A stretch of DNA of 64,000 nt from an uncultured Candidatus Rokubacteria bacterium. Lineage in GTDB: Bacteria; Methylomirabilota; Methylomirabilia; Rokubacteriales; DASRDR01. Below are positions 1-11,500 of this stretch, piece after piece (positions within the stretch are counted from its first letter, which is position 1; the number at the start of each line of letters is the position of its first letter). Made by a program: the position numbers and the translations under genes. Under the pieces are notes generated by a model. The model did no database searches. It saw only the letters and a program-made list of their open reading frames with translations, and was not told where the DNA came from. The stretch lies in the NCBI GenBank assembly GCA_963805625.1, contig CAWDVE010000013.1, positions 448,001 to 512,000 of the forward strand, written 5' to 3'.

Positions 1-1
1 C

Positions 2-154
2 CCGGAGGGTACGCTCGAGGATCGCCGTCTTGCCACTGCCCGGAGCGGACATCAGGTTGACGACGAACGAGCCGTGGGCATCGAACTCCCGCCGGTTCTC
101 CCGCGCGATCAGCTCGTTGGTGTCCAGCACGCTCCGGAGCACGCTAACCTGCAC
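2..154 (-). CDS. hypB: Hydrogenase nickel incorporation GTPase HypB, N-terminus only (runs off the window start)
   Basis: Manual translation from GTG at 154 gives VQVSVLRSVLDTNELIARENRREFDAHGSFVVNLMSAPGSGKTAILERTL, with the HypB NLMSxPGSGKT P-loop. It overlaps the hypA stop. Confidence 0.9.
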   Translation of the reverse strand, partial: MQVSVLRSVLDTNELIARENRREFDAHGSFVVNLMSAPGSGKTAILERTLR

Positions 155-512
155 AGGGCACCTCCTCGCTCGTCTCGAGGCTGATGACCTCCAGCTCACG
201 CCCCGAGATCAGCTCGACGAGCCCGGAGCCGCAGCGGGGACAGCTGAAGGACAGCACTTCGATCTCGAAGCCCGCGGCGCAGTCGGCGCAGGTGGCCCGG
301 ACAGGGATGTGTTCTATCACGAGGACCGCCCCGTCGAGCGCGGTCCCCGGAGTCAGCAGGTCGAAGTAATGGCGGAGGCAATCCGGGACGACGGAGGTGA
401 GCCGCCCGATCCTGACCGTGACACACGATACGGGAGGGCGCGGCCCCGCGAGGCGGGCCAGGGCGTTCGTCGCCACCTCGATGATCCCCTCGCAGACCGA
501 CAATTCGTGCAT
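144..512 (-). CDS. hypA: Hydrogenase maturation nickel metallochaperone HypA
   Basis: MHELSVC N-terminus, two CxxC motifs (CADC, CPRC) and an SGREL C-terminal motif. Confidence 0.95.
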   Translation of the reverse strand: MHELSVCEGIIEVATNALARLAGPRPPVSCVTVRIGRLTSVVPDCLRHYFDLLTPGTALDGAVLVIEHIPVRATCADCAAGFEIEVLSFSCPRCGSGLVELISGRELEVISLETSEEVPCAG

Positions 513-537
513 GCCCGGTCTCCCGTCCGCATCAGCC

Positions 538-957
538 TCACGTCGGTCCGCGCGCGGCGACCTGGGCGAGAGTGGTCTCGTCCATCATCGCCTGGAGCGT
601 CGCGCTGACCCGGGCCCACTCGCTCTGCAGTCGGCAGGGATGGGGGTCGCCCGCACGGCGGGGCGGGAAGATGCACCGCCGGAGGACCACGGGCCCCTCG
701 ATGGCCTCGAAGATCTCCCTCAGCCGGATCTCCTGGGCCGGTCGCGCCAGCGCATAGCCGCGAACGGCGCCGCGGTGGGACGAGACCAGGCGGTGACGCC
801 GGAGCTTCTGGAGCGTGCGGGCCAGAAAGCCGGCGGGCAACTGGCCCGCCTGAGCGATCTGGCGAAGAAGCATGACCGTGCCCCGGGGCTGTCTGGCCAA
901 CACGATCAACCCCTCCAGGCCATACTGACTCTCGCGACTGAGAATCACCGGAGTCAA
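538..957 (-). CDS. Rrf2 family transcriptional regulator
   Basis: Winged-HTH pattern LSRESQYGL...FLARTLQKL...SHRGAVRGYALARPAQEIRLREIFEAIEG. The true start may be GTG at 948. Confidence 0.9.
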   Translation of the reverse strand: MTPVILSRESQYGLEGLIVLARQPRGTVMLLRQIAQAGQLPAGFLARTLQKLRRHRLVSSHRGAVRGYALARPAQEIRLREIFEAIEGPVVLRRCIFPPRRAGDPHPCRLQSEWARVSATLQAMMDETTLAQVAARGPT

Positions 958-978
958 AAGACCTCACGGGTCGCTTGA
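954..978. promoter_or_regulatory. Imperfect inverted repeat at the Rrf2 start, candidate autoregulatory operator
   Basis: TCAAAAGACC-N5-GGTCGCTTGA; the arms match at 8 of 10 positions. Confidence 0.35.
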
Positions 979-1149
979 GGAAAGAGTGGATCGGCCCGCG
1001 CGTAGGGTCCATGAGCCAAGAGCCTCATTCTTCTGAGGCATGGGCCTCACCTCGGGTCCAGGACAGGCCTGTAGGTCGTGGGCCGCCACGACCGGAGCTT
1101 GACCGCGATCGTGAGGTGGATCAGCAGCGACCCGGGAACCTCGCGAGAT

Positions 1150-1412
1150 CCCTGGCGCCTGGTGCACGGCCGGCATCTTCTGCTTCACCCGGTCGTGGAA
1201 CGAGTTCCTCTACGCGCTCATCTTCATGTCGTGCGGCTCGATGAAGATCATTTCGGTCGGGACGGTCAGCGACCTGGTCAAGGCGGACACCCTGTTCTGG
1301 GGATCGCTGATGGCCTCCGCGGTGCTCGGCTCGGTCCCGATCGCCATCCTGTACTCGTTCTTCGTCAAGCAACTACGTGTCCGGGCTCACCGCCGGGGCC
1401 GTGAAGGGATAG
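1150..1412 (+). pseudogene. C-terminal remnant of a carbohydrate ABC permease (MalG-like), frameshifted
   Basis: TAGIFCFTRSWNEFLYALIF...FWGSLMASAVLGSVPIAILYSFFVK, then YVSGLTAGAVKG* in another frame. No N-terminal part; resembles 39028-39888. Confidence 0.8.
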
Positions 1413-1494
1413 GCAGGCACCGCCCGGCCTGGGTCGCGCCCGACACCGGCGGGGGTTCGGGTCAGGCGCCCAGACGGCCCCCGGAGGCGCCGGC

Positions 1495-1625
1495 GTGAGT
1501 TCCGGTCAGGACCCGGCGGACATCGTCGGCGTAGGTCACCCGGCGATGCACGAGGCCTATCTCGAGAAATACTCCGAGGGCGCTCCCGCCCCGCTGGCCA
1601 AGTGCTCCGAGCTCTACGGTTCCTC
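1495..1625 (+). pseudogene. Possible N-terminal fragment of a DUF1330-like protein, ending shortly before the 1660 repeat
   Basis: GGAGG RBS then GTG. ADIVGVGHPAMHEAYLEKYSEGAPAPLAK loosely resembles DUF1330 N-termini. Confidence 0.25.
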
Positions 1626-1659
1626 GCCAGAAAGCGCAAGGAAACGGCGGGTGGTGGCT

Positions 1660-1688
1660 CGAACCCGTGTTTCAGCCTTGAGGATGGC
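1660..1688 (-). repeat. 29-bp direct repeat, copy 1 (tRNA-Glu(CTC)-like fragment, att-like)
   Basis: CGAACCCGTGTTTCAGCCTTGAGGATGGC, identical to 6170-6198. The reverse complement contains CTCAA-GGCTG-AAAC-ACGGG-TTCG. Confidence 0.85.
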
Positions 1689-1779
1689 CCTGGCTCGCGC
1701 AGCTAGGGGTACGGCCGCGGCGGCTTCTATAGCTACGACTGGCTCGAGTGAAAAGCACCGAGCGCGTCAATAACCCACA

Positions 1780-2679
1780 TCATTTCCTCTCGAATACCGT
1801 CCGCTGATGAGTGAAGATCTCACGCTCAAAGACCAGCTGATTGCATGAGTACCAGAAGGAGACGATCTGATACCGGAAGTTCTTGTCGAAGATATACTTG
1901 GGCAGCAGCTTCAGCACGAGCCAAAGTTTTCTGAAACTGAACTCGAGGCTCTTTCTCCCCCACTCTTTGAGCGTCTGGATATAGTCCAGCCGTCCGTTGT
2001 TCGCGGATATGAAAGTAAAATAAGGATCGGCGCACTTCTGCAGCTGCTCAAGGCCGCTGGGCAGCCAACTGCCGGGATAATACTTCTCCAAGTGCCCCAT
2101 CACCCAATTGTCCGACAGTTTTTGCGCGTTCACGTCACACTCTTCAGGCCTTGGGACGCGTTTGCCCCAGAGCATGGTCTGGACATACAAGCGTCCGCCG
2201 GGTTTCAACATCTGGGAACATTTCGCGAAAAAGCCATCGTAAATCTGATCCTGCTTGCCCGCCTCGAACTCTTCAATGCTGCAGAAGTGCTCGAGTGGAC
2301 CCACGGCCACGACCGCGTCAAAGACGCCTTCGTTCGAGTCCAGCTCCCTGAAATCCTTCAAGATGGCGTTCAGCCCGTCGGCTCGACATGCCGCGGCCTG
2401 CGCCGGAGACAACGTAAGCCCAAGCCCGACCGCGCCCCGCTCTCGTATGGCGTTTAGAATCGGTCCCCAGCCGCAGCCGACCTCAAGAACCCGGTCCCCT
2501 CTCTTGACGTGAAGGCTGTCAAGAATGAAATCATGCTTCTTCTTCTGCGCCTGTTCGAGCGTCAGGGTAAAGTCACCGCCATACATGGCGCCGCTGATAT
2601 CGGCATGATCTCCGAGGCTCAGACGGAAGATGTCATCCATGTAATCGTACGTAGCCTCGATCTGCTTCTGCGTTGCCAT
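1780..2679 (-). CDS. Class I SAM-dependent methyltransferase, cyclopropane fatty acid/mycolic acid synthase family
   Basis: TLEQAQKKK...RVLEVGCGWG, GLTLSPAQ, VGPLEHF and LKPGG motifs. Visibly lower GC than the flanks. Confidence 0.88.
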   Translation of the reverse strand: MATQKQIEATYDYMDDIFRLSLGDHADISGAMYGGDFTLTLEQAQKKKHDFILDSLHVKRGDRVLEVGCGWGPILNAIRERGAVGLGLTLSPAQAAACRADGLNAILKDFRELDSNEGVFDAVVAVGPLEHFCSIEEFEAGKQDQIYDGFFAKCSQMLKPGGRLYVQTMLWGKRVPRPEECDVNAQKLSDNWVMGHLEKYYPGSWLPSGLEQLQKCADPYFTFISANNGRLDYIQTLKEWGRKSLEFSFRKLWLVLKLLPKYIFDKNFRYQIVSFWYSCNQLVFEREIFTHQRTVFERK

Positions 2680-2923
2680 AATAGGTTAACCTTATCATGG
2701 ACACGGCAAGCAGCTTCAGGGGATCGACTTGCGCTGGTCCTCAAGGATCTCCCAGAGCCTTCCGCGCGGCGTCCACTTCGCCGTCCTGCATAGTGGGCCC
2801 TGTACTCTCCGAGATCAGCTTGCAGGCCAGATCCCTCTGCGCCACTCGTGATAGTGCTGATCCAGTAAGCATTGCTACTCTCCCGATCTCCCCGGATCAC
2901 TCGCTTCCAAGAACCTTCACATT

Positions 2924-3232
2924 CTAGAGGAATCCGATGCGCCTGGCGCCTCCGCCCTCCGCACCGATTTCCAGAATCGCGACCACATACGACCACGGGA
3001 CGAGAATCTCGAACCCCTCGTGCTTGCTGCCCGTACCGTCCCAGCTACCATCGGTCCTCGCCACTATGCCCGCCAGGTGGCCGAAGTTCACCACGGTGCA
3101 GGCGATGGCGAAAGCGGGCGCTCCGCGAGGCTGATTCAACTCAGGATCCAAGACTTGGCGGCTCCATGAAAACTTCTCGAACCAGGCACCCTCGACGACC
3201 AGCTCCACACGGTCGCCCTCCCGGATCGGCAT
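2924..3232 (-). CDS. Hypothetical protein (102 aa) ending in RRIGFL
   Basis: GAGG RBS before the ATG; globular, beta-rich composition. Confidence 0.6.
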   Translation of the reverse strand: MPIREGDRVELVVEGAWFEKFSWSRQVLDPELNQPRGAPAFAIACTVVNFGHLAGIVARTDGSWDGTGSKHEGFEILVPWSYVVAILEIGAEGGGARRIGFL

Positions 3233-3639
3233 ACCTCACATCTCCCTGTTCATGAATCACTTGGATCTAGGAACGTGTTACCCTTCCCACTTCGTTCCAC
3301 TCTGAAGTCGCACGGTTCCGGCCCTACTGGTACTTTGACAGACATCGCTGGGTCTGACAGCCAGGTCATGTATCTTGCCATCAACCAGCCGGAATCCCTC
3401 GCGTCCGAAGCTTCCCTGCACTTTGCTGACGATCTCGATCGGAAGCCGGACCATTCGGCTATGAGTCTCGGCATCTTCCTAATGATCAAGTGTGCCGCGG
3501 TGTCCACGGCATGGGGAATGGAATCTGGTATCCCGCGTACTCGTTAGATCGGCTGCTCGCGGTAGCGGTCCCGTCCGAGCGGAGGGCCACGGGTGGCCGT
3601 GGCCCTCGCCCCTGCTCCTGGCGTTCGTCACCCCATGGC

Positions 3640-4215
3640 TTACTGACAGATTTGCTGGCTGTAGGCGGGAATCCACACCGTGGCGCGCTGCCCGTTCTGG
3701 ACCGTCCGGGTCTCGTAGTGGCCCTGGACGGTCACGGTCTCACAGTTCTGACCGCCGGTCGGGGCCGACCCCTGGGCAGGCGGCTGCGGCGGCCCCGCCG
3801 GCGGGCTGCCGTAGCTCAGGCTGGTTGACGGATTCACCTGGCCTCCTGTCCCGGGGTCAGGCGGCGGGGTGTAGGCGGGGGGTGAGTATGCCGGGTACGA
3901 GTATGCGGGATAGCTGTAGGCCGGGTATGGGTAGGTAGGGTACGCGTAGGGATACGCAGGGTACGCGTAGGCCGGGGGATACCAGTAGGGGGCCGTAGCG
4001 AGGGTACCGATCCCCAACCCGAGGGCGAAGCCCCCCCAGCCCCAGCCCCAACCACCCCCGTGCCCACCATGCCAGCCCCCACCTCCACCATGCCAAGCAC
4101 CACCGCCGCCACCACGAAATCCACCGTGCCCCCCACCCCGCTGAGCCTGAGCAGGGCCCGCGAGGAGCGGCACGAGAAGCAGGGCCGCGAGCGCGATCGC
4201 CGTCAATTTCCTCAC
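3640..4215 (-). CDS. Secreted Gly/Trp- and Tyr/Pro-rich low-complexity protein
   Basis: GAGGAGG RBS then GTG at 4215; signal peptide ending AQA; GGGWHGG and YPAY repeats; C-terminal two-Cys module. Confidence 0.8.
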   Translation of the reverse strand: MRKLTAIALAALLLVPLLAGPAQAQRGGGHGGFRGGGGGAWHGGGGGWHGGHGGGWGWGWGGFALGLGIGTLATAPYWYPPAYAYPAYPYAYPTYPYPAYSYPAYSYPAYSPPAYTPPPDPGTGGQVNPSTSLSYGSPPAGPPQPPAQGSAPTGGQNCETVTVQGHYETRTVQNGQRATVWIPAYSQQICQ

Positions 4216-4520
4216 GTTCTTAGCCTCCTCTACAGTTGTTTTGACGGCAATATCGCGCCTTCGATTCCTAGGTTCCGTCAATCCCGGCGACCACCCCCCG
4301 CCGCCATCCCGGTCTGCCCACCGACCCGCGGGGGCCGGTTCTCACCCAGCGCGCCCGGCCCACTCTGGCCGGCCTGCCGCGCGCTAGAGTCCAGCCACCC
4401 TGGGACTGAACCGGACGCGGAAAACTAGCGACGGAGGGGCTACTCGCCGTCGCTGCAGCAGCCGGAGCGCAAGATTCCGCATGGAGGGTACAGGCGGAAA
4501 ATAAGGTATTCTCGGCGAGC

Positions 4521-5180
4521 ATGAACGACCCCGCCCAGGCGCCGCGCATCGAACCGCGCTGGCCCCCTGCCCTCGTGATCCTCGGGGTGACCGTCTTGCT
4601 CCAATCGCTGCACCCCCGCCTCCGGGTGTTGCCGGCCTGGTTTCACTACACCGTCACGATTGCTTTGCTCGTCCCGATGGTCGGCGTCGCACTGACCACG
4701 GCCAGAGCGCCGTGGCCACGTGTCGAGCGGACGATGACATTTCTCTTTTTCGCGACCGTTCAGGTCGCGACCCTGGTGGCCCTGGGGCGATTGATCGGCG
4801 AGATGGTGTACGACTCGAAGGAGGTCAGCGGGCTCGTGCTACTGGCGTCATCCATTGGGGTGTGGGCGCAGAACGTGCTCGCGTTCTCGTTGCTGTACTG
4901 GCAACTCGATCGAGGCGGGCCGCACGCTCGGGCGAGTAATCTGAGTCAGAAGCCGGACTGGCTCTTTCCGCAAACGGGAGTACCCGAGGACGTGCTGCCC
5001 GGTTGGCAGCCCACGTACGTAGACTACCTGTTCCTGGGATACTCGACGGCGACGGCATTCAGCGCCACCGATGCGCTGCCGCTGACGTCTCGCGCCAAGA
5101 TGCTGATGATGCTTCAGAGCATGATCTCGCTCGTGACGATCCTCCTCGTCGCCGCACGCGCGATCAATATTCTCCAGTGA
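4521..5180 (+). CDS. DUF1345-like membrane protein
   Basis: EPRWP N-terminus, several TM segments, DWLFPQ, WQPTYVDYLFLGYSTATAFSATD and AKMLMMLQS. Confidence 0.8.
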   Translation: MNDPAQAPRIEPRWPPALVILGVTVLLQSLHPRLRVLPAWFHYTVTIALLVPMVGVALTTARAPWPRVERTMTFLFFATVQVATLVALGRLIGEMVYDSKEVSGLVLLASSIGVWAQNVLAFSLLYWQLDRGGPHARASNLSQKPDWLFPQTGVPEDVLPGWQPTYVDYLFLGYSTATAFSATDALPLTSRAKMLMMLQSMISLVTILLVAARAINILQ

Positions 5181-5419
5181 GACGGTGACCTGGCAGGATG
5201 CGCCCTTCTATCTTGATTCCAATACCAAAGGGCGCCTTTCCGGATGAAACCCCCAATTCGAGTTGACCCGCTTCCGTGGATTCCGTTCCCCTTGTGGGGA
5301 GCGGGAGCTGCGCAGTAGATTCAGTCCTCGCGGCGTTGGGCGGCGAGTCGTTCAGTGCTCGGTTCGCTCACTTCGGTTCACCATGTTCATGCCCCGGCAA
5401 GGAGGAAGGAGACGACTCG

Positions 5420-5851
5420 ATGTTGGCTCAGCTCTCGCTCCGTGAGATCTCGCACGTGATAGCGCTGTCCATGGCGCCGGCCTTTCTTCTGGCGGCGGTC
5501 GGTGCGTTCAGCTCATTGGTGGTAGGCAAGATGACGAGCATCGTCACACGTATCCGCATCCTGAATACCATCGAGGATACCGATCGAGCCCGTGCTCATC
5601 TCAAGGCGGATATTCCAAGGCTCAAGCGCTGCGCGAAGCTGATGGACCGCGCGCTCACATGCTTGGTGGGCAGCGGCTTGGTCACGGCGTCTCTCATGAT
5701 CCTCGCGTTCGCCGGGGCTGTCATGAAGTGGCAGCATGAAACGGCAGTTGCCGTGCTCTTCATGATTACCCTCGCGCTCATCGCAGTCGCGTTTGGCTTC
5801 CTCTTTTGTGAGGCCCTCATCTGGCACGGCGAATTTGATCATCAGGCGTGA
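5420..5851 (+). CDS. DUF2721-like membrane protein
   Basis: RBS then ATG at 5420; IALSMAPAFLLAAVG...RIR pattern; three hydrophobic helices. Confidence 0.75.
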   Translation: MLAQLSLREISHVIALSMAPAFLLAAVGAFSSLVVGKMTSIVTRIRILNTIEDTDRARAHLKADIPRLKRCAKLMDRALTCLVGSGLVTASLMILAFAGAVMKWQHETAVAVLFMITLALIAVAFGFLFCEALIWHGEFDHQA

Positions 5852-6169
5852 GGTTGCCGCTCCGGGGGGTGCCGACGCACCCGGCCCCAAGGCAGGCCGT
5901 CGATGCACGCGCAGAGGGCAGCGGTGGAGGCCGGAGGCCTCATGTCGTACGGGCCGAGCGCTCACTCGTGGGAAAATTGTGGGAGCGGGACAACCACGGG
6001 GTGGCTCCGGCGCGGTTGTCATCGGCCAGAATGCCGTCGCGAGACGGCCCGGAACTCCCCGGATTCATGGCGATGACGTCCAATGGTGGCCGATAGACCC
6101 CTCCCGGTCACAGAACTGAAAAGCCCGGGTGCATCTTGGTCCCGGAGCCTGGGGGTCTGCAACGAAATG

Positions 6170-6198
6170 CGAACCCGTGTTTCAGCCTTGAGGATGGC
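6170..6198 (-). repeat. 29-bp direct repeat, copy 2 (tRNA-Glu(CTC)-like fragment, att-like)
   Basis: Identical to 1660-1688. Confidence 0.85.
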
Positions 6199-6349
6199 GA
6201 CGAGCACTGCAGCCGCACGCACTTCTCGCGCGACAGCTACGTTTGGTTGGGATGCATACCGGGCCATGTCCATCTCAGGTTTCAGTAGACTTTCTGAAGA
6301 CTTGTAAAGCGGGCTGGCACTCGTCACCGGCTTTGTCCCGAGACTTGAG

Positions 6350-6670
6350 AGCGCCTTCTAGACCGGGGCGACCGCGCCCGCTCGAACCTCCGGCGATCTA
6401 CCAGGTGTGGCCCCGTCTCCTGACACAGGCGCGGTTGACTGGCAGGCCGGGCGGGAGCCTCCGCGAGTGCCCCCCAGGCCCTCCGCCAATACTCTATGCG
6501 AGCCTCCAAATTGCCAAGGTCATCGAGGCCGGACGCGACCGGGACGCCCTCCTGACGTACCTCAGAAGCCAGCTGCGTCATCGGAACATCCAAAGGGCGA
6601 TGGGCTACTACATCCACCTCTTCCCGGGCGGCCAACGGGAGATCACCAACCGCCCGGACGACGACATCGG
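6350..6670 (+). pseudogene. Decayed C-terminal part of a tyrosine recombinase/integrase
   Basis: PSRPGRPRPLEPPAIYQVWPRLLTQARL; CTCCGCCAATACTCTATGCGAGCCTC reads LRHTYASL once two inserted bases are removed; TYLRSQLRHRNIQRAMGYYIHLFPGG resembles QLGHSSIxxTxxxYxHLxPG. Confidence 0.7.
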
Positions 6671-6793
6671 CCGGGACTGGCCGTCGGTCTTCCGGTCCAT
6701 CCGGCCGAGGGATGCGAGGCCTCTGGATTCGTCGCAGACCATCGTAAATCCGTCTCACTTGGCGAAAACGTCGCAATCGAGGGCCCCTGGAAC

Positions 6794-7039
6794 GTGAGCG
6801 AAAGGTCCGTAACGGTATATAGTTCGCCCACCTGACGCCCCTGCAAGCAGACGAAAGAGTTTCTTTCGTCCAAGGGCGTGACGTATCGGGAAGTGAACGT
6901 GGCGGAGGACTTGGAGGGCCGGGATGAGCTGATCCGGCGTACCGGTCAGCTGGCCGTGCCAGTGACGGTGATCGACGACGAGGTGGTGCTGGGCTTCAAC
7001 CGGCCCCGGCTCGTCGAGCTGCTCGGCCTGGACGCCTAA
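6794..7039 (+). CDS. Glutaredoxin/NrdH-like selenoprotein (U-R-P-C), 81 aa; absent from the ORF track
   Basis: MSERSVTVYSSPT[TGA 6833]RPCKQTKEFLSSKGVTYREVNVAED...TGQLAVPVTVIDDEVVLGFNRPRLVELLGLDA*. The UGA sits at the first Cys position of CxxC. Confidence 0.9.
6836..6878 (+). promoter_or_regulatory. Bacterial SECIS element
   Basis: Lower stem CGCCC/GGGCG; upper stem GACGAAAG/CTTTCGTC; apical loop AGTTT containing GU, starting 22 nt after the UGA. Confidence 0.8.
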
Positions 7040-7060
7040 CCTACCTGGGCCGGAAGCAAA

Positions 7061-7090
7061 GCTGGCCGGCGGGAGTCCCCGCCGGCAGCT
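7061..7090. terminator. GC-rich hairpin between the convergent glutaredoxin and TPR genes
   Basis: GCCGGCGGG...CCCGCCGGC stem. An upstream A-run gives a short U tract on the minus strand. Confidence 0.5.
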
Positions 7091-7135
7091 CAGCTCGTCC
7101 CAAGAGCGGAGGGCCGGAGCCCTCCGCCGCGCGTC

Positions 7136-8497
7136 TCACTGGGGATACTTGTCGCGAAGCTTCTTGAGGTGCTGCCGGGCGACGTCCACCCACTCCTTCT
7201 CCGTGGCGACCGTGGACGCGATCCCGATGTACCGATCCCATTGCGCGATGGCCTCGCGCGGGTCCAGCTTCTCGTAGGCGAGGGCAAGGTTGTAGTGCGC
7301 CGCCGTGTGTTTCGCCTCGACCTCGATCACCTTCTTGTACTCGGCGACGGCGTCCTTGTAGAGACCCTTCTCCTCGTAGATCTCGCCGAGTCCCATGCGA
7401 GCCTCGAGAAAATACTGGTCCAGCTCGATCGCCTTCTTGTAGGCGCTCACCGCCTCGTAGTAGAGCCCCTTCTCGGTGTAGTAGATCTTGCCCAGGGCGA
7501 ACTGCACCCGGGCATTCAGGGGATCGAGCGAAAGGGCCTTCTGGTAGTGGGCGATGGCGGCCTCATGCTCGCCCTTCGCGGCCTTGGCGTCCCCGAGGCC
7601 CACGTGCGCGTCCGCGTAGTGCGGCCTGATCGTGATCGCACGCTGGTAGGCCTCGATCGCCTGGTCGAAGAGCCGCCGCGGGCTAGACATGAACAGGTCC
7701 CCGAGCGCCTTGTACGGCTCCGGGATCCCGGCATCCACCTGGGTCGCGGCCCGGAACTGCGCCGCCGCCTTCCAGCGGTTCCCGAGGACGAGGTGCACGG
7801 AGCCCAGCTGGTAGTGTGCCAGAGCGAAGGTTGGGTCGACCTCGACCGCTCGTGCCAGGAGCTCCGCGGCGCCTTCGTTCCCCTCCTGGGTCCCGGAAAG
7901 GGCCGAGCGGCGCCCCTTGGCGAAGGCCTCGAACGCCGTGAGGTTCGTCGTGGGCTTGGCCGCCGCCACCAGGCGGTCGACCTCGTCCGCTTTCAGTCCG
8001 AGGTTGAGCGCCTTCGCATACGACTGGATCAGCGTGGCCTGCGTCTCGATGAGCTTGTCGCTCGGGCCCCGGACCGGATCGAGCGTCTGGCTCTGCCCCG
8101 TCTTCACGTCGATCAGCCGGGGCGTGATCGTGATGCCGTCACTCGCCGTCCGCTGGTAGTCGCCGAGGAAGACGATCTCGGCCTTGACAGCGCGCCCGAG
8201 GGCAAGGGGGCTCCGATCGGTGGCGCTCTCCGCAGCGGTCCCGCGAGCCGCCTGCCCGGCCCGGCTCCGGTCGATGGGCAGGAGCGCGGGTGTGCCCTGG
8301 GACGCCACGAAGAGCGTCTCGGCGATGGCCTCGCCGAACCAGGCGTCCGTCTCGGTCGACTGGTACGGCAAGATCAGCACGGGCCTGGGCTTCGCCCACG
8401 CCGTCCCCCCGAGTGCCGCCCAGAGGGAGCACGCCGCGAGCAGCCCCAGCATCGGCCCCCGCATTCGATGGACCCGGCGTCCGGTGCGTCTTGCCAT
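7136..8497 (-). CDS. Exported TPR-repeat protein with an N-terminal CsgG/FlgO/TolB-N-like domain
   Basis: AGGAGG RBS then ATG at 8497; signal peptide; VLILPY...GDYQ...RLIDVKTG; multiple TPR units. Confidence 0.85.
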   Translation of the reverse strand: MARRTGRRVHRMRGPMLGLLAACSLWAALGGTAWAKPRPVLILPYQSTETDAWFGEAIAETLFVASQGTPALLPIDRSRAGQAARGTAAESATDRSPLALGRAVKAEIVFLGDYQRTASDGITITPRLIDVKTGQSQTLDPVRGPSDKLIETQATLIQSYAKALNLGLKADEVDRLVAAAKPTTNLTAFEAFAKGRRSALSGTQEGNEGAAELLARAVEVDPTFALAHYQLGSVHLVLGNRWKAAAQFRAATQVDAGIPEPYKALGDLFMSSPRRLFDQAIEAYQRAITIRPHYADAHVGLGDAKAAKGEHEAAIAHYQKALSLDPLNARVQFALGKIYYTEKGLYYEAVSAYKKAIELDQYFLEARMGLGEIYEEKGLYKDAVAEYKKVIEVEAKHTAAHYNLALAYEKLDPREAIAQWDRYIGIASTVATEKEWVDVARQHLKKLRDKYPQ

Positions 8498-8502
8498 CGT
8501 GG

Positions 8503-11500
8503 CTACCTCCTTGTCCTCCACCACGCGAGCCGCGCGAGAGCTGGGCCGACCCGGCGCATCGCGATCTCCGGCACCAGCGCCACGGTCACGAGGCCCACCA
8601 GCCACGGCCACAGGTCGGTCGGGATCCGGGAGCGACGCCGGTTCAGGGTGAAGACCTCTTTGGCGTCACTCAACGGACCACCACCGGTCAGCTCGCTCAC
8701 CTCCCGCAGGAAACCCTCGTTGGCCCCCAGCTCGCGATACTCCTGCGCGTAAGGCACGACGGTGCCGACGATCTGCGAGCCGAAGCTCTGCTGCTCCCGA
8801 CGGGTCGTCAGGCCGGCCAGGTACACGCCCTCGTCCCGCGCCCCGAAGGTGCCGCGGTACCGCCCGGGTGCGACCTGCTCGAGCTCGACCACGGACTGCC
8901 GCTTGTCAGGATTGACCACCCCGAGCTGACCGTCCAGGAAGTTGATGAACTCTCCCTTCGGATCGATCCCGTCGACGGTGACGACCGCCTGGCCGTCCCG
9001 CCGGTCCACGCTGACGGTGGTGTCGCTGCGCGTGTTCGCGCGCAGCGTCCAGCGGACCACCTGCGCCCAGAACTTGTTGTACGCGCCCCACCGGAGCCAG
9101 AGAATACCCCACTTCGCCCGGGCGTCGGCAGTGAAGGCCACCGACCGTCCGAGCCCGTAGCGCCAGGCAGCCAGCAGCGGGTCCTCCTGGTGGGTCATCA
9201 GGACCTGGTCGGCGGTGCCCTTGATGCTGGTCGCGACATAGCCACCGAGGGGGGGCGCCTTCGGCCAGTCGATGTCCTGGATCGTCTCGTGGGACGGACT
9301 CGTCACGATCGCCTTGAACGGCTGCTCGATCAGCGACGCTTTCGATGCGAGCTGGGTCTCCAGCGTGAAGATTCGCGGGACCGTGCTGGTCTCCTCGGTG
9401 AAGTAGAAGCGCCCGCGCCCCCACTTGGAGACGTCGTTCATCAGCTGGACGTCGGCGTCGGAGCCGATCGCGACTCCGGACACCGTGATCTTGTCTTTGA
9501 CCATGCGACGGATCAGGGCGGCGAAGTCGCCGCGCGTCATTTGCCCGTCCGACAGGAAGATGACGTGCTTGAGCAACGCGTCGCGGTCGAAGAGGGCCTT
9601 GTACGCCTCGCGCACCGCCGGGTAGCCGTCGGTGCCGCCCCCGGCCTTGATCGCCGAGATCTCGCGGTGGATCGCCTGCTTGTTCTTCGCCGGCTGGATG
9701 GGCACGTGCCACACGAACTCGGTGTCGAACGAAAGGACGCCGACCTCGTTCCGCTCGTCGAGGAGGTCGACGACCAGATGGGCGGACTCCTTCGCGACCT
9801 CGAGCTTGTTGATCTTGTCGTTGTCCTTCATGCCCATCGCCATGGAGCCGGACCGGTCGATCACGAGCATGACCGCAAGGCTCGGGATCTCGACCTTCTG
9901 CTTCACCTCCATGGTGACCGGCAGGGCCTCCTCGATGGGCGTGCGGTAGAAGCCGCCGAGCCCAAAGCTCTCCTCACCGCCGATCATGATCAGGCCGCCA
10001 CCCTGATCCCGGACGTAGTCGCGGACGAGGGTCATCTGCTGGCGCGTCATCTTGAGCGAGGACACGTTCGACAGGATGACTCCGTCGTACTTCTCGAACG
10101 CGGCCATCGTCGAGGGCAGGCCCTCGGGGCCGACGAGCCGCACGTCGAAGTACTGGGACCGGAGAGCGTTGGCCAGATTCTGCGCCTGCGACTCCTCCTT
10201 GTCGACCAGGAGCACCTGCGGCTTGCCGCGCACCACGGTGATCCCGATGGCGCGGTTGTTCTCCTCGATGACGTCGCCCTCGACCTCGACCAGCGCCTGG
10301 TAGACGTGCACCCCGGCCTGCTCGAGCGACTGGCGGTAGGTCAGGACGTTCTTCCCCGCGTTGAGGCGCACTACCTGCGAACCGAGGAACTCACCGTTCC
10401 GGTAGAGTGACAGCCGGCCGCTCGCTTCCTTGACCGAGGTGACGACAGCCTTCGCGTAGAACGGCTCGCCGAACTTGACCTCGTTCGGCAGGAGCAGCTG
10501 CTCGACGACGATCTCCTGGGGGAACGTCAGACCGACCGGCGAGTAGTAGATCGGGATGCCGGCGTCCTTGGCTGCCTGGGCGGCCACCACCGCCTTCCCG
10601 GCGTTCTCGCGACCGTCCGACAGGAGGACGATCCGGTTGGCCTCCCCACGCGGAAGCGAGGCCTGGGCAAGCTGGATCGCTCGCGCGAGGTTCGTGATCC
10701 GCCCGCCCGCCGTCGGCTGCGGACGGGCGAAGGTCGGTGTCGGCCGGAGCGCTTCCGCCAGCTGCGGGTCTCCCGCGAAGGTGATGAGCCCGGCCCGGTC
10801 CCCGGCCTTCATGCCCTCGAGCGCCGCCGTGGCCCACCGATAGGCGGTCTCCCGCGCGGCGAGGCTGACGCTGTCGGACATGTCCAGCACGAAGAAGACG
10901 TTCTGCCGGTCCAGCCACCGGGTGAACTGGGGCTGGGTGAGGCCCCAGGCGAGCAGCAGGAGCGCGACCCCGCGGCTCGCCAGCGCCCAGCGGTCCGACG
11001 CGCGCAAGGGCCACGACAGGCGCCCCGCGGTCTGGCGCCGCCAGTAGAGGAAGCCCTCGAACGCGAGCGTCAGCATCGCCAGGCCCAGGAGGAACGGCCA
11101 CAGGTCGCGCTGGTACGTGAAGCTGTCCCCCACCCCGCCCGCCGTCGGCGGCGGCGAGACCGGAAGAGGCTGGGGGCGGATGTTCGACTCGGTGCCGTCG
11201 AGAAGGTTGACCGCGAACCGCACTTCCCGCTTCCCGCCCGTTGTCAGCGTGTACAGACCCACGCGGTCCGTCTGCGAGAACGACAGGGCGCCCCGCGTGA
11301 TCTCGGCTTGGTGCGTGGCGCCGCTCGGGTCCCGCACCGTCCCCTCCTGGACGCCGTGCTCGACGGACAGGAGGAAGGGTGTCCCGGCGGTGACCATGAG
11401 ATCCGAGCCCTCGAGACCCACGGGCTGGAGCCATCTCAGGCTGTTCGCCAGGATCAGCGGGAACGCGACCCGCAGCGGGAGATCGGTCTTGAAGAGGTCG

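Follow-up and report, generated by a model that had tools for sequence, protein, structure and literature searches.

The 64,000-nucleotide stretch of an uncultured Candidatus Rokubacteria genome analysed here (the window) contains a conserved gene of the glutaredoxin type. Its in-frame UGA is very likely read as selenocysteine (Sec) by means of an adjacent SECIS hairpin, and its front end is likely to have been supplied by an integrative element. Judging from comparison with its relatives, the gene appears to serve as an attachment site for integrative islands. The features on which this reading is built are listed in Table 1.

Table 1. Features of the glutaredoxin locus and its surroundings, in window coordinates.
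Feature	Position	Strand	Remarks
Decayed tyrosine-integrase remnant	6243..6797	+	C-terminal part at 6378-6662
Glutaredoxin-like (YruB/NrdH-type) gene	6794..7039	+	81 aa, GTG start, TAA stop
Equivalent of the G019 76-bp repeat; likely attR junction here	6795..6870	+	Comparison with G019
In-frame TGA, predicted selenocysteine 14	6833..6835	+	Attacking position of U-R-P-C
Whole predicted SECIS, including weakly conserved lower stem	6836..6878	+	Folding; lower stem 68.3% paired
Resolving Cys17 (TGC)	6842..6844	+	Invariant, 18/18 aligned proteins
SECIS upper stem and apical loop	6850..6870	+	9 bp with loop GUU, or 8 bp with loop AGUUU
AVPV cis-proline loop (Pro56)	6953..6964	+	Pro56 invariant, 18/18 aligned proteins
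GC-rich palindrome without T run, between convergent genes	7060..7090	.	Seen in sequence
Convergent TPR-protein gene	7136..8611	-	Conserved host neighbour, marks orthology

An earlier note on this DNA had pointed to a frame with a TGA in place of the first Cys of a glutaredoxin CxxC, followed by AVPV and GFN motifs, and each of these elements was confirmed. The frame at 6794-7039 (+) encodes 81 residues plus a stop and has a single internal TGA (6833-6835), which is codon 14 and lies in the context S-S-P-T-U-R-P-C. AVPV corresponds to codons 54-57 and GFN to codons 67-69, and the translation reads MSERSVTVYSSPT-U-RPCKQTKEFLSSKG...AVPV...GFNRPRL.... From what is known of the glutaredoxin family, we assume that Pro56 of the AVPV loop has the cis geometry. 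With the TGA read through, the product matches the Pfam family Glutaredoxin (PF00462) with 67.8 bits, against a cut-off of 22.9 (E 9.5e-19). The more narrowly defined families are all matched below their cut-offs: YruB (TIGR02196, with U read as C) with 81.2 bits against 88.55, Uxx-star (NF041212) with 52 against 66, NrdH (TIGR02194) with 51.1 against 85.75, and GrxC, the classical glutathione-dependent glutaredoxin, with 47 against 90. These scores suggest a protein that would work like YruB TIGR02196, yet is not filed in that family. The AlphaFold model has a thioredoxin-like fold (pLDDT 93.2), and Foldseek superposes it on PDB entry 7C10, identified by its Foldseek title as dithiol cGrx1, with an rmsd of 0.8 Å, a TM score of 0.88 and 48% identity; 7C10 is also the best PDB match by sequence (E 8e-17). 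In the protein collection, the gene of the window is present only as P0064, a 46-residue fragment that does not include the active site; therefore, gene callers truncated the gene. Among its homologues in the protein alignment, P0001, P0002 and P0012 have Cys at the Sec column. Two database homologues, P0020 and P0030, have Trp or Cys there and retain KEFLSS; P0020 may be a gene call made under the wrong genetic code. A scan of the locus for promoters and terminators returned none of either.

The hairpin, GACGAAAG-AGTTT-CTTTCGTC at 6850-6870, had been described in the earlier note as standing on a base in which CGCCC (6836-6840) pairs with GGGCG (6874-6878). The upper part of that description stands and the lower part does not fare as well. 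In an alignment of 29 sequences, made up of 28 orthologous loci and one paralogue, the 9-bp upper stem is 96.9% paired, the base only 68.3%, and RNAalifold retains the upper stem and drops the base. Covariation is thin, at 4 of 14 pairs and 6 cells, the aligned sequences being kin and not independent. The 50 nt that begin at the UGA fold with -21.6 kcal/mol (z -3.99), a stability equalled by none of 200 shuffles; 100-nt stretches around the UGA fold less distinctly (z -1.05 and -1.94). According to the available part of PMC13188914, the bSECIS model calls for a loop of 3-9 nt, an upper stem of 4-16 bp, a G in the first two loop positions, and a distance of 16-37 nt from the UGA, with an MFE of at most -7.5. 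The hairpin agrees with all four bSECIS criteria: its loop has 3 or 5 nt and its stem 9 or 8 bp, the G is first or second in the loop, and the distance from the UGA is 23 or 22 nt, with the folding energy already given. As DNA, the same 21 bp are a near-perfect inverted repeat.

How well are the TGA and the hairpin conserved? For the locus set, 61 genomes were searched and the 30 best loci taken; after removal of one that is unpublished, 29 were left, the window's own gene included; a TPR gene lies downstream in 24 of these and a galT-like gene upstream in 18. The TGA is present in 28 of the 29, the remaining locus (L018) having TGC. In the 28 TGA loci, the codons that form the hairpin are AAA (25/28), TTT (26/28) and CTT (28/28), which make up just 4.8, 6.1 and 4.3% of the Lys, Phe and Leu codons of the genome and are found later in the same 28 genes at 3/17, 4/45 and 7/162 of the corresponding positions. 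In the TGC homologue these codons are AAG, TTC and CTC, and the stem is lost. The idea that L018 is a reverted orthologue is unsupported, as it has neither TPR nor galT neighbours, and it serves here only as a Cys control. Among 183 genomes of the order, 70 have the exact pattern of UGA plus stem (two of the 70 being unpublished), spread over several families, and the reversed control gives 0. With the conserved hairpin and the Pfam match, these counts support the proposal of a real Sec-glutaredoxin made in the earlier note, and we regard it as very likely, from sequence comparison, that the UGA of codon 14 is read as selenocysteine. Sec14 would be inserted when SelB-GTP-Sec-tRNA binds the loop with the apical G, which lies 22-23 nt downstream of the UGA. 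The one RNA run compared with the locus (X14) gave no coverage of the gene.

The organism had also been expected to decode Sec, and its genome (99.91% complete, 6.26% contaminated) bears this out, with the sel genes on contigs other than that of the glutaredoxin gene. Both selA (576 bits) and selD (395 bits) are over their cut-offs, selD having a TGA of its own in HGAG-U-ACK, and one tRNA-Sec(UCA) of 76.9 bits, likewise over cut-off, lies within the selA-selB cluster. In the assembly, selB adjoins selA and is split by the loss of one base in a homopolymer run (G000:C21:224981; L003:1485). Since the missing base is present in short-read contigs of runs X1 and X3, and selB is over its cut-off in all five of five congeners, the break is an assembly error. 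X3 comes from another study; the long pieces of X1 show no other letters, and this run may not be independent. Pieces of X2 and X5 stop at the homopolymer run. A broken Sec pathway was accordingly considered and rejected.

Two other ways of accounting for the TGA have to be weighed against Sec. The gene could be a pseudogene, the TGA a sequencing error, or UGA reassigned to Trp or Gly throughout the genome; the frameshift of selB in the assembly and the Trp of P0020 at the Sec column would both fit such a view. It is largely refuted, and we give it next to no weight. The TGA is conserved over several families, and the selB break is absent from the short-read contigs. A 434-nt short-read contig from another strain (run X2) spans the TGA and has it unchanged, not TGC or TGT, so that the TGA is no assembly slip; relative to the window, this contig differs at 2 of 246 bases of the gene, while the 145 bases upstream show 8 substitutions and 1 deletion. 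Moreover, TGA ends 1169 of 1767 long coding frames. As the main stop codon, it rules out a general reassignment of UGA. A subtler possibility is that the UGA is decoded, wholly or partly, as Cys through a tRNA-ReC (selC*) that depends on the SECIS. The available part of PMC13582414 reports tRNAs of this kind from genomes with UxxU hydrogenases, and this genome has one UxxU hydrogenase gene. Against this, the sole UCA tRNA among the 63 found at default stringency looks like tRNA-Sec, with an 8-bp acceptor stem and a G discriminator, and the single tRNA for Cys has no unusual length; a scan at relaxed stringency gave 1046 calls and was too noisy to use. We consider decoding as Cys very improbable, and Sec is the reading retained below.

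Other Sec candidates turned up in the same genome. A genome-wide SECIS scan gave 57 hits among 152,479 TGAs and missed the present glutaredoxin gene, so it is not a census. From these hits 20 TGA candidates were picked by hand (L139-L158), of which 17 match redox or selenoprotein families across the TGA; the 20 include four UGSC proteins, several peroxiredoxin and ResA/TlpA-like proteins, two related to YciW, and GrdB-like, SelL-related, protein disulfide oxidoreductase and rhodanese candidates, again not a census. A paralogous Sec gene, from G000:C10:725102 onward (+) (L039, L072), combines a glutaredoxin-like domain containing RPG-U-SSC with a longer C-terminal part and has a related SECIS with a compensatory pair. 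The hydrogenase mentioned above (L071, L080) is a Group-1-like [NiFe] large subunit with PRK10467 as its best NCBIfam match, encoded roughly 1.7 kb to the left of the window at G000:C13:445427-446326 (-), in which both N-terminal Cys codons are TGA (RI-U-GV-U). In the available part of PMC13582414, UxxU hydrogenases are reported for group 4 only. Four of the five matches to this pattern in 183 genomes have both TGAs and G019 has only the second; the C-terminal motif has Cys in relatives. In the present genome this subunit breaks off after some 345 residues and continues into hypE. HypA-like and Rrf2-like frames, read from the sequence of the window (144-957 (-) and 1-6700), end the hydrogenase cluster.

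NrdH-type redoxins use thioredoxin reductase, and the genome has a thioredoxin reductase over cut-off. No GshB was found over cut-off in it, and neither PF04262 GshA nor BshC was found in any of the 15 genomes examined. On these grounds we lean toward re-reduction of the protein by thioredoxin reductase rather than by glutathione. A GCS2-family ligase in the genome, and the description of cGrx1 as GSH-reduced in the available part of PMC7642778, speak against it. By analogy with the cGrx1 family, the Sec14 selenolate would attack a target disulfide and Cys17 would resolve the intermediate, as described for cGrx1. The only ribonucleotide reductase found is the class II NrdJ, and there are two MsrA domains, without internal stops; candidate targets are this reductase, MsrA and the numerous peroxiredoxins.

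We turn now to the upstream side of the gene, on which the earlier note is silent. The C-terminal part of the integrase remnant (6378-6662) is 36% identical over 95 aa to the integrase of relative G019 (tblastn, E 1e-11), and the remnant alone has no Pfam match; with this decayed sequence as the evidence, an island here is likely. Its frame (6243-6797) stops at a TGA that overlaps the GTG start of the glutaredoxin gene (GTGA). The same overlap is found in G008 C5, and the end of the integrase abuts the start of the gene in G019 and G008 C39. In G019, the order is galT side, 5′-only copy of the gene, 25,539 bp, a protein of 439 aa that matches Phage_integrase (E 6.7e-19), the gene itself and TPR, and this 25.5-kb island lies between identical 76-bp direct repeats that end at the last pair of the stem. 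In G008 and G001 the gene is adjoined by this same integrase at 95% identity, and remnants abut it in G014, L041, G004 and the window; an integrase or remnant is directly upstream in 4 of the 29 gene loci, this window included. Among 29 loci with related integrases, the four closest (66-100% identity) all abut the start of this gene, and eight of the more distant ones lie beside tRNA genes. The island-side gene is frameshifted in G019 and G001, through assembly error or real damage.

Extra 5′-only copies, comprising the first 24-25 codons, are present in several relatives. Four of them, of which G004 and G008 have two apiece, stop after GAGTTTCTT (window 6865), another two stop after TTTCGTC (window 6870; G019 and G004 C9), and a seventh, in G008 C5, ends before the hairpin. 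Copies in tandem occur in G004 and G008. In G019 and G004 the displaced, co-oriented target fragment is seen at the far end of the island. The crossover may lie anywhere along the 76 bp of the G019 repeat, and the copies break at two points, 5 bp apart. Against the island reading, the galT gene lies 171 kb away in the window's genome, and 44 and 118 kb away in G014 and G003. Of the 19 loci outside the genus, none has an integrase upstream and at least 18 keep the stem Leu codon, most of them the whole stem; the hairpin is therefore older than the islands.

An opposing view would accept a real Sec-glutaredoxin but take the remnant for a chance neighbour and the front end for native, with islands recombining at some other point of the 76-bp repeat, so that the SECIS would be incidental. 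In its favour, searches of the window's genome by blastn, tblastn and pattern gave neither a displaced 5′ copy nor an island arm, the G019 repeat leaves the position of the crossover free along its length, and the region upstream of the gene varies widely within the genus. It accounts poorly for a remnant frame that stops on the start codon, as intact integrases do, for the six of seven displaced copies that end in or at the stem, and for the 42%-identical integrase that abuts the paralogous Sec gene, which has a similar hairpin (L102, G017). We consider it unlikely. An island-supplied front end in this window is, in our judgement, probable, and a crossover within the hairpin DNA is the placement we favour, with somewhat less assurance.

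Several observations accompany the attachment site. GC content is 0.60-0.66 over positions 1-8000 of the window and about 0.70 further right, as would fit debris of an island upstream of the gene. In the G019-type element the attachment site is flanked on either side by short repeats ATCCGCAAC (upstream arms of L099, L100, L101 and L062; left junction of G019), which are possibly integrase arm-binding sites. Rare codons in the first 13 codons were considered as a sign of foreign origin and rejected, as they are equally present in the host-side copy of G019. A search for phage carriers gave no match to the UGA plus stem pattern in viral contigs, and no relatives of the integrase were found in metagenome contigs.

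We picture the process as follows. A tyrosine integrase would recombine inside the inverted repeat of the SECIS, and the element would carry a ribosome-binding site, a start codon, the UGA and the 5′ arm of the hairpin. The 3′ part of the host gene would be refitted with this new front end, the old one being displaced to the far side, and the element in this window would since have decayed to a remnant. More broadly, and with odds that we put only a little better than even, an integrase clade may have shifted from tRNA genes to the SECIS hairpins of at least two selenoprotein genes, recombining at an inverted repeat that reading by SelB holds nearly constant. The element would carry the catalytic UGA, and with every integration the selenoenzyme would receive another promoter region, start codon and active-site codons.

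What would follow from this? The selenoprotein as such is a routine annotation fix: the glutaredoxin occurs across the order, and gene callers reduce it to stubs of 46-67 residues. If the crossover does lie in the SECIS, mobile DNA lands on a signal for translational recoding, probably for the reasons that make tRNA genes targets (frozen sequence and dyad symmetry), and the element must bring along a functional Sec codon together with half of the SECIS. Integrase and target would make a short, testable pair, and 5′-only selenoprotein fragments in assemblies can be island ends, which is a warning to annotators. In the literature, with most subscription journals outside our scope, we found no report of a SECIS or selenoprotein gene as an integration site, although the supplement tables of island databases could hold one, and none of a Sec-glutaredoxin family in Rokubacteria.

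A Sec-glutaredoxin is not new in kind, since UxxC glutaredoxins are an established family among the experimentally verified bacterial selenoproteins (PMC13188914, in the part available; also PMC1794560), and a Methylomirabilota MAG is reported in the former with 63 selenoprotein genes. The nearest characterised counterpart is cGrx1 of Clostridium (Alkaliphilus) oremlandii, described in the available parts of PMC7642778 and PMC4479559 as a native U13/C16 selenoprotein that reduces Sec-MsrA. cGrx1 (7C10) and the present gene share Sec at the attacking position of UxxC and the AVPV and GF motifs. They differ in the active site (U-P-H-C in cGrx1, U-R-P-C here) and in phylum; furthermore, cGrx1 serves a Sec-MsrA, whereas neither MsrA domain here has an internal stop, and a glutathione pathway is not likely in this organism. 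YruB, NrdH and Uxx-star are the top NCBIfam matches, and like them the protein has about 80 residues and a single domain; unlike them, as judged by the three cut-offs, it falls outside each family, and its gene does not adjoin ribonucleotide reductase genes.

As for the islands, replacement of the 5′ end of a gene is known from dusA (PMC4482086). To the extent that the available part of that source describes them, the dusA islands share with those proposed here a tyrosine integrase, a target at the 5′ end of a protein-coding gene and an island that supplies the replacement 5′ end. The replaced part of dusA is described there as holding no cofactor- or tRNA-binding residue; here it would comprise the Sec codon of the active site and one half of the hairpin used for recoding. 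For dusA islands, excision was shown by PCR, whereas the present islands were recognised by sequence comparison. At tRNA genes, a regenerated target plus a displaced fragment is the rule, according to the available part of PMC4383910 (Islander), and, as in the tRNA- and tmRNA-targeting islands treated there, these two mark the ends of the islands considered here, tandem arrays occur, and the crossover would lie in DNA that encodes a stem-loop. The difference is in the nature of the target: instead of a tRNA gene, it would in the present case be a hairpin of an mRNA, situated within a coding frame.
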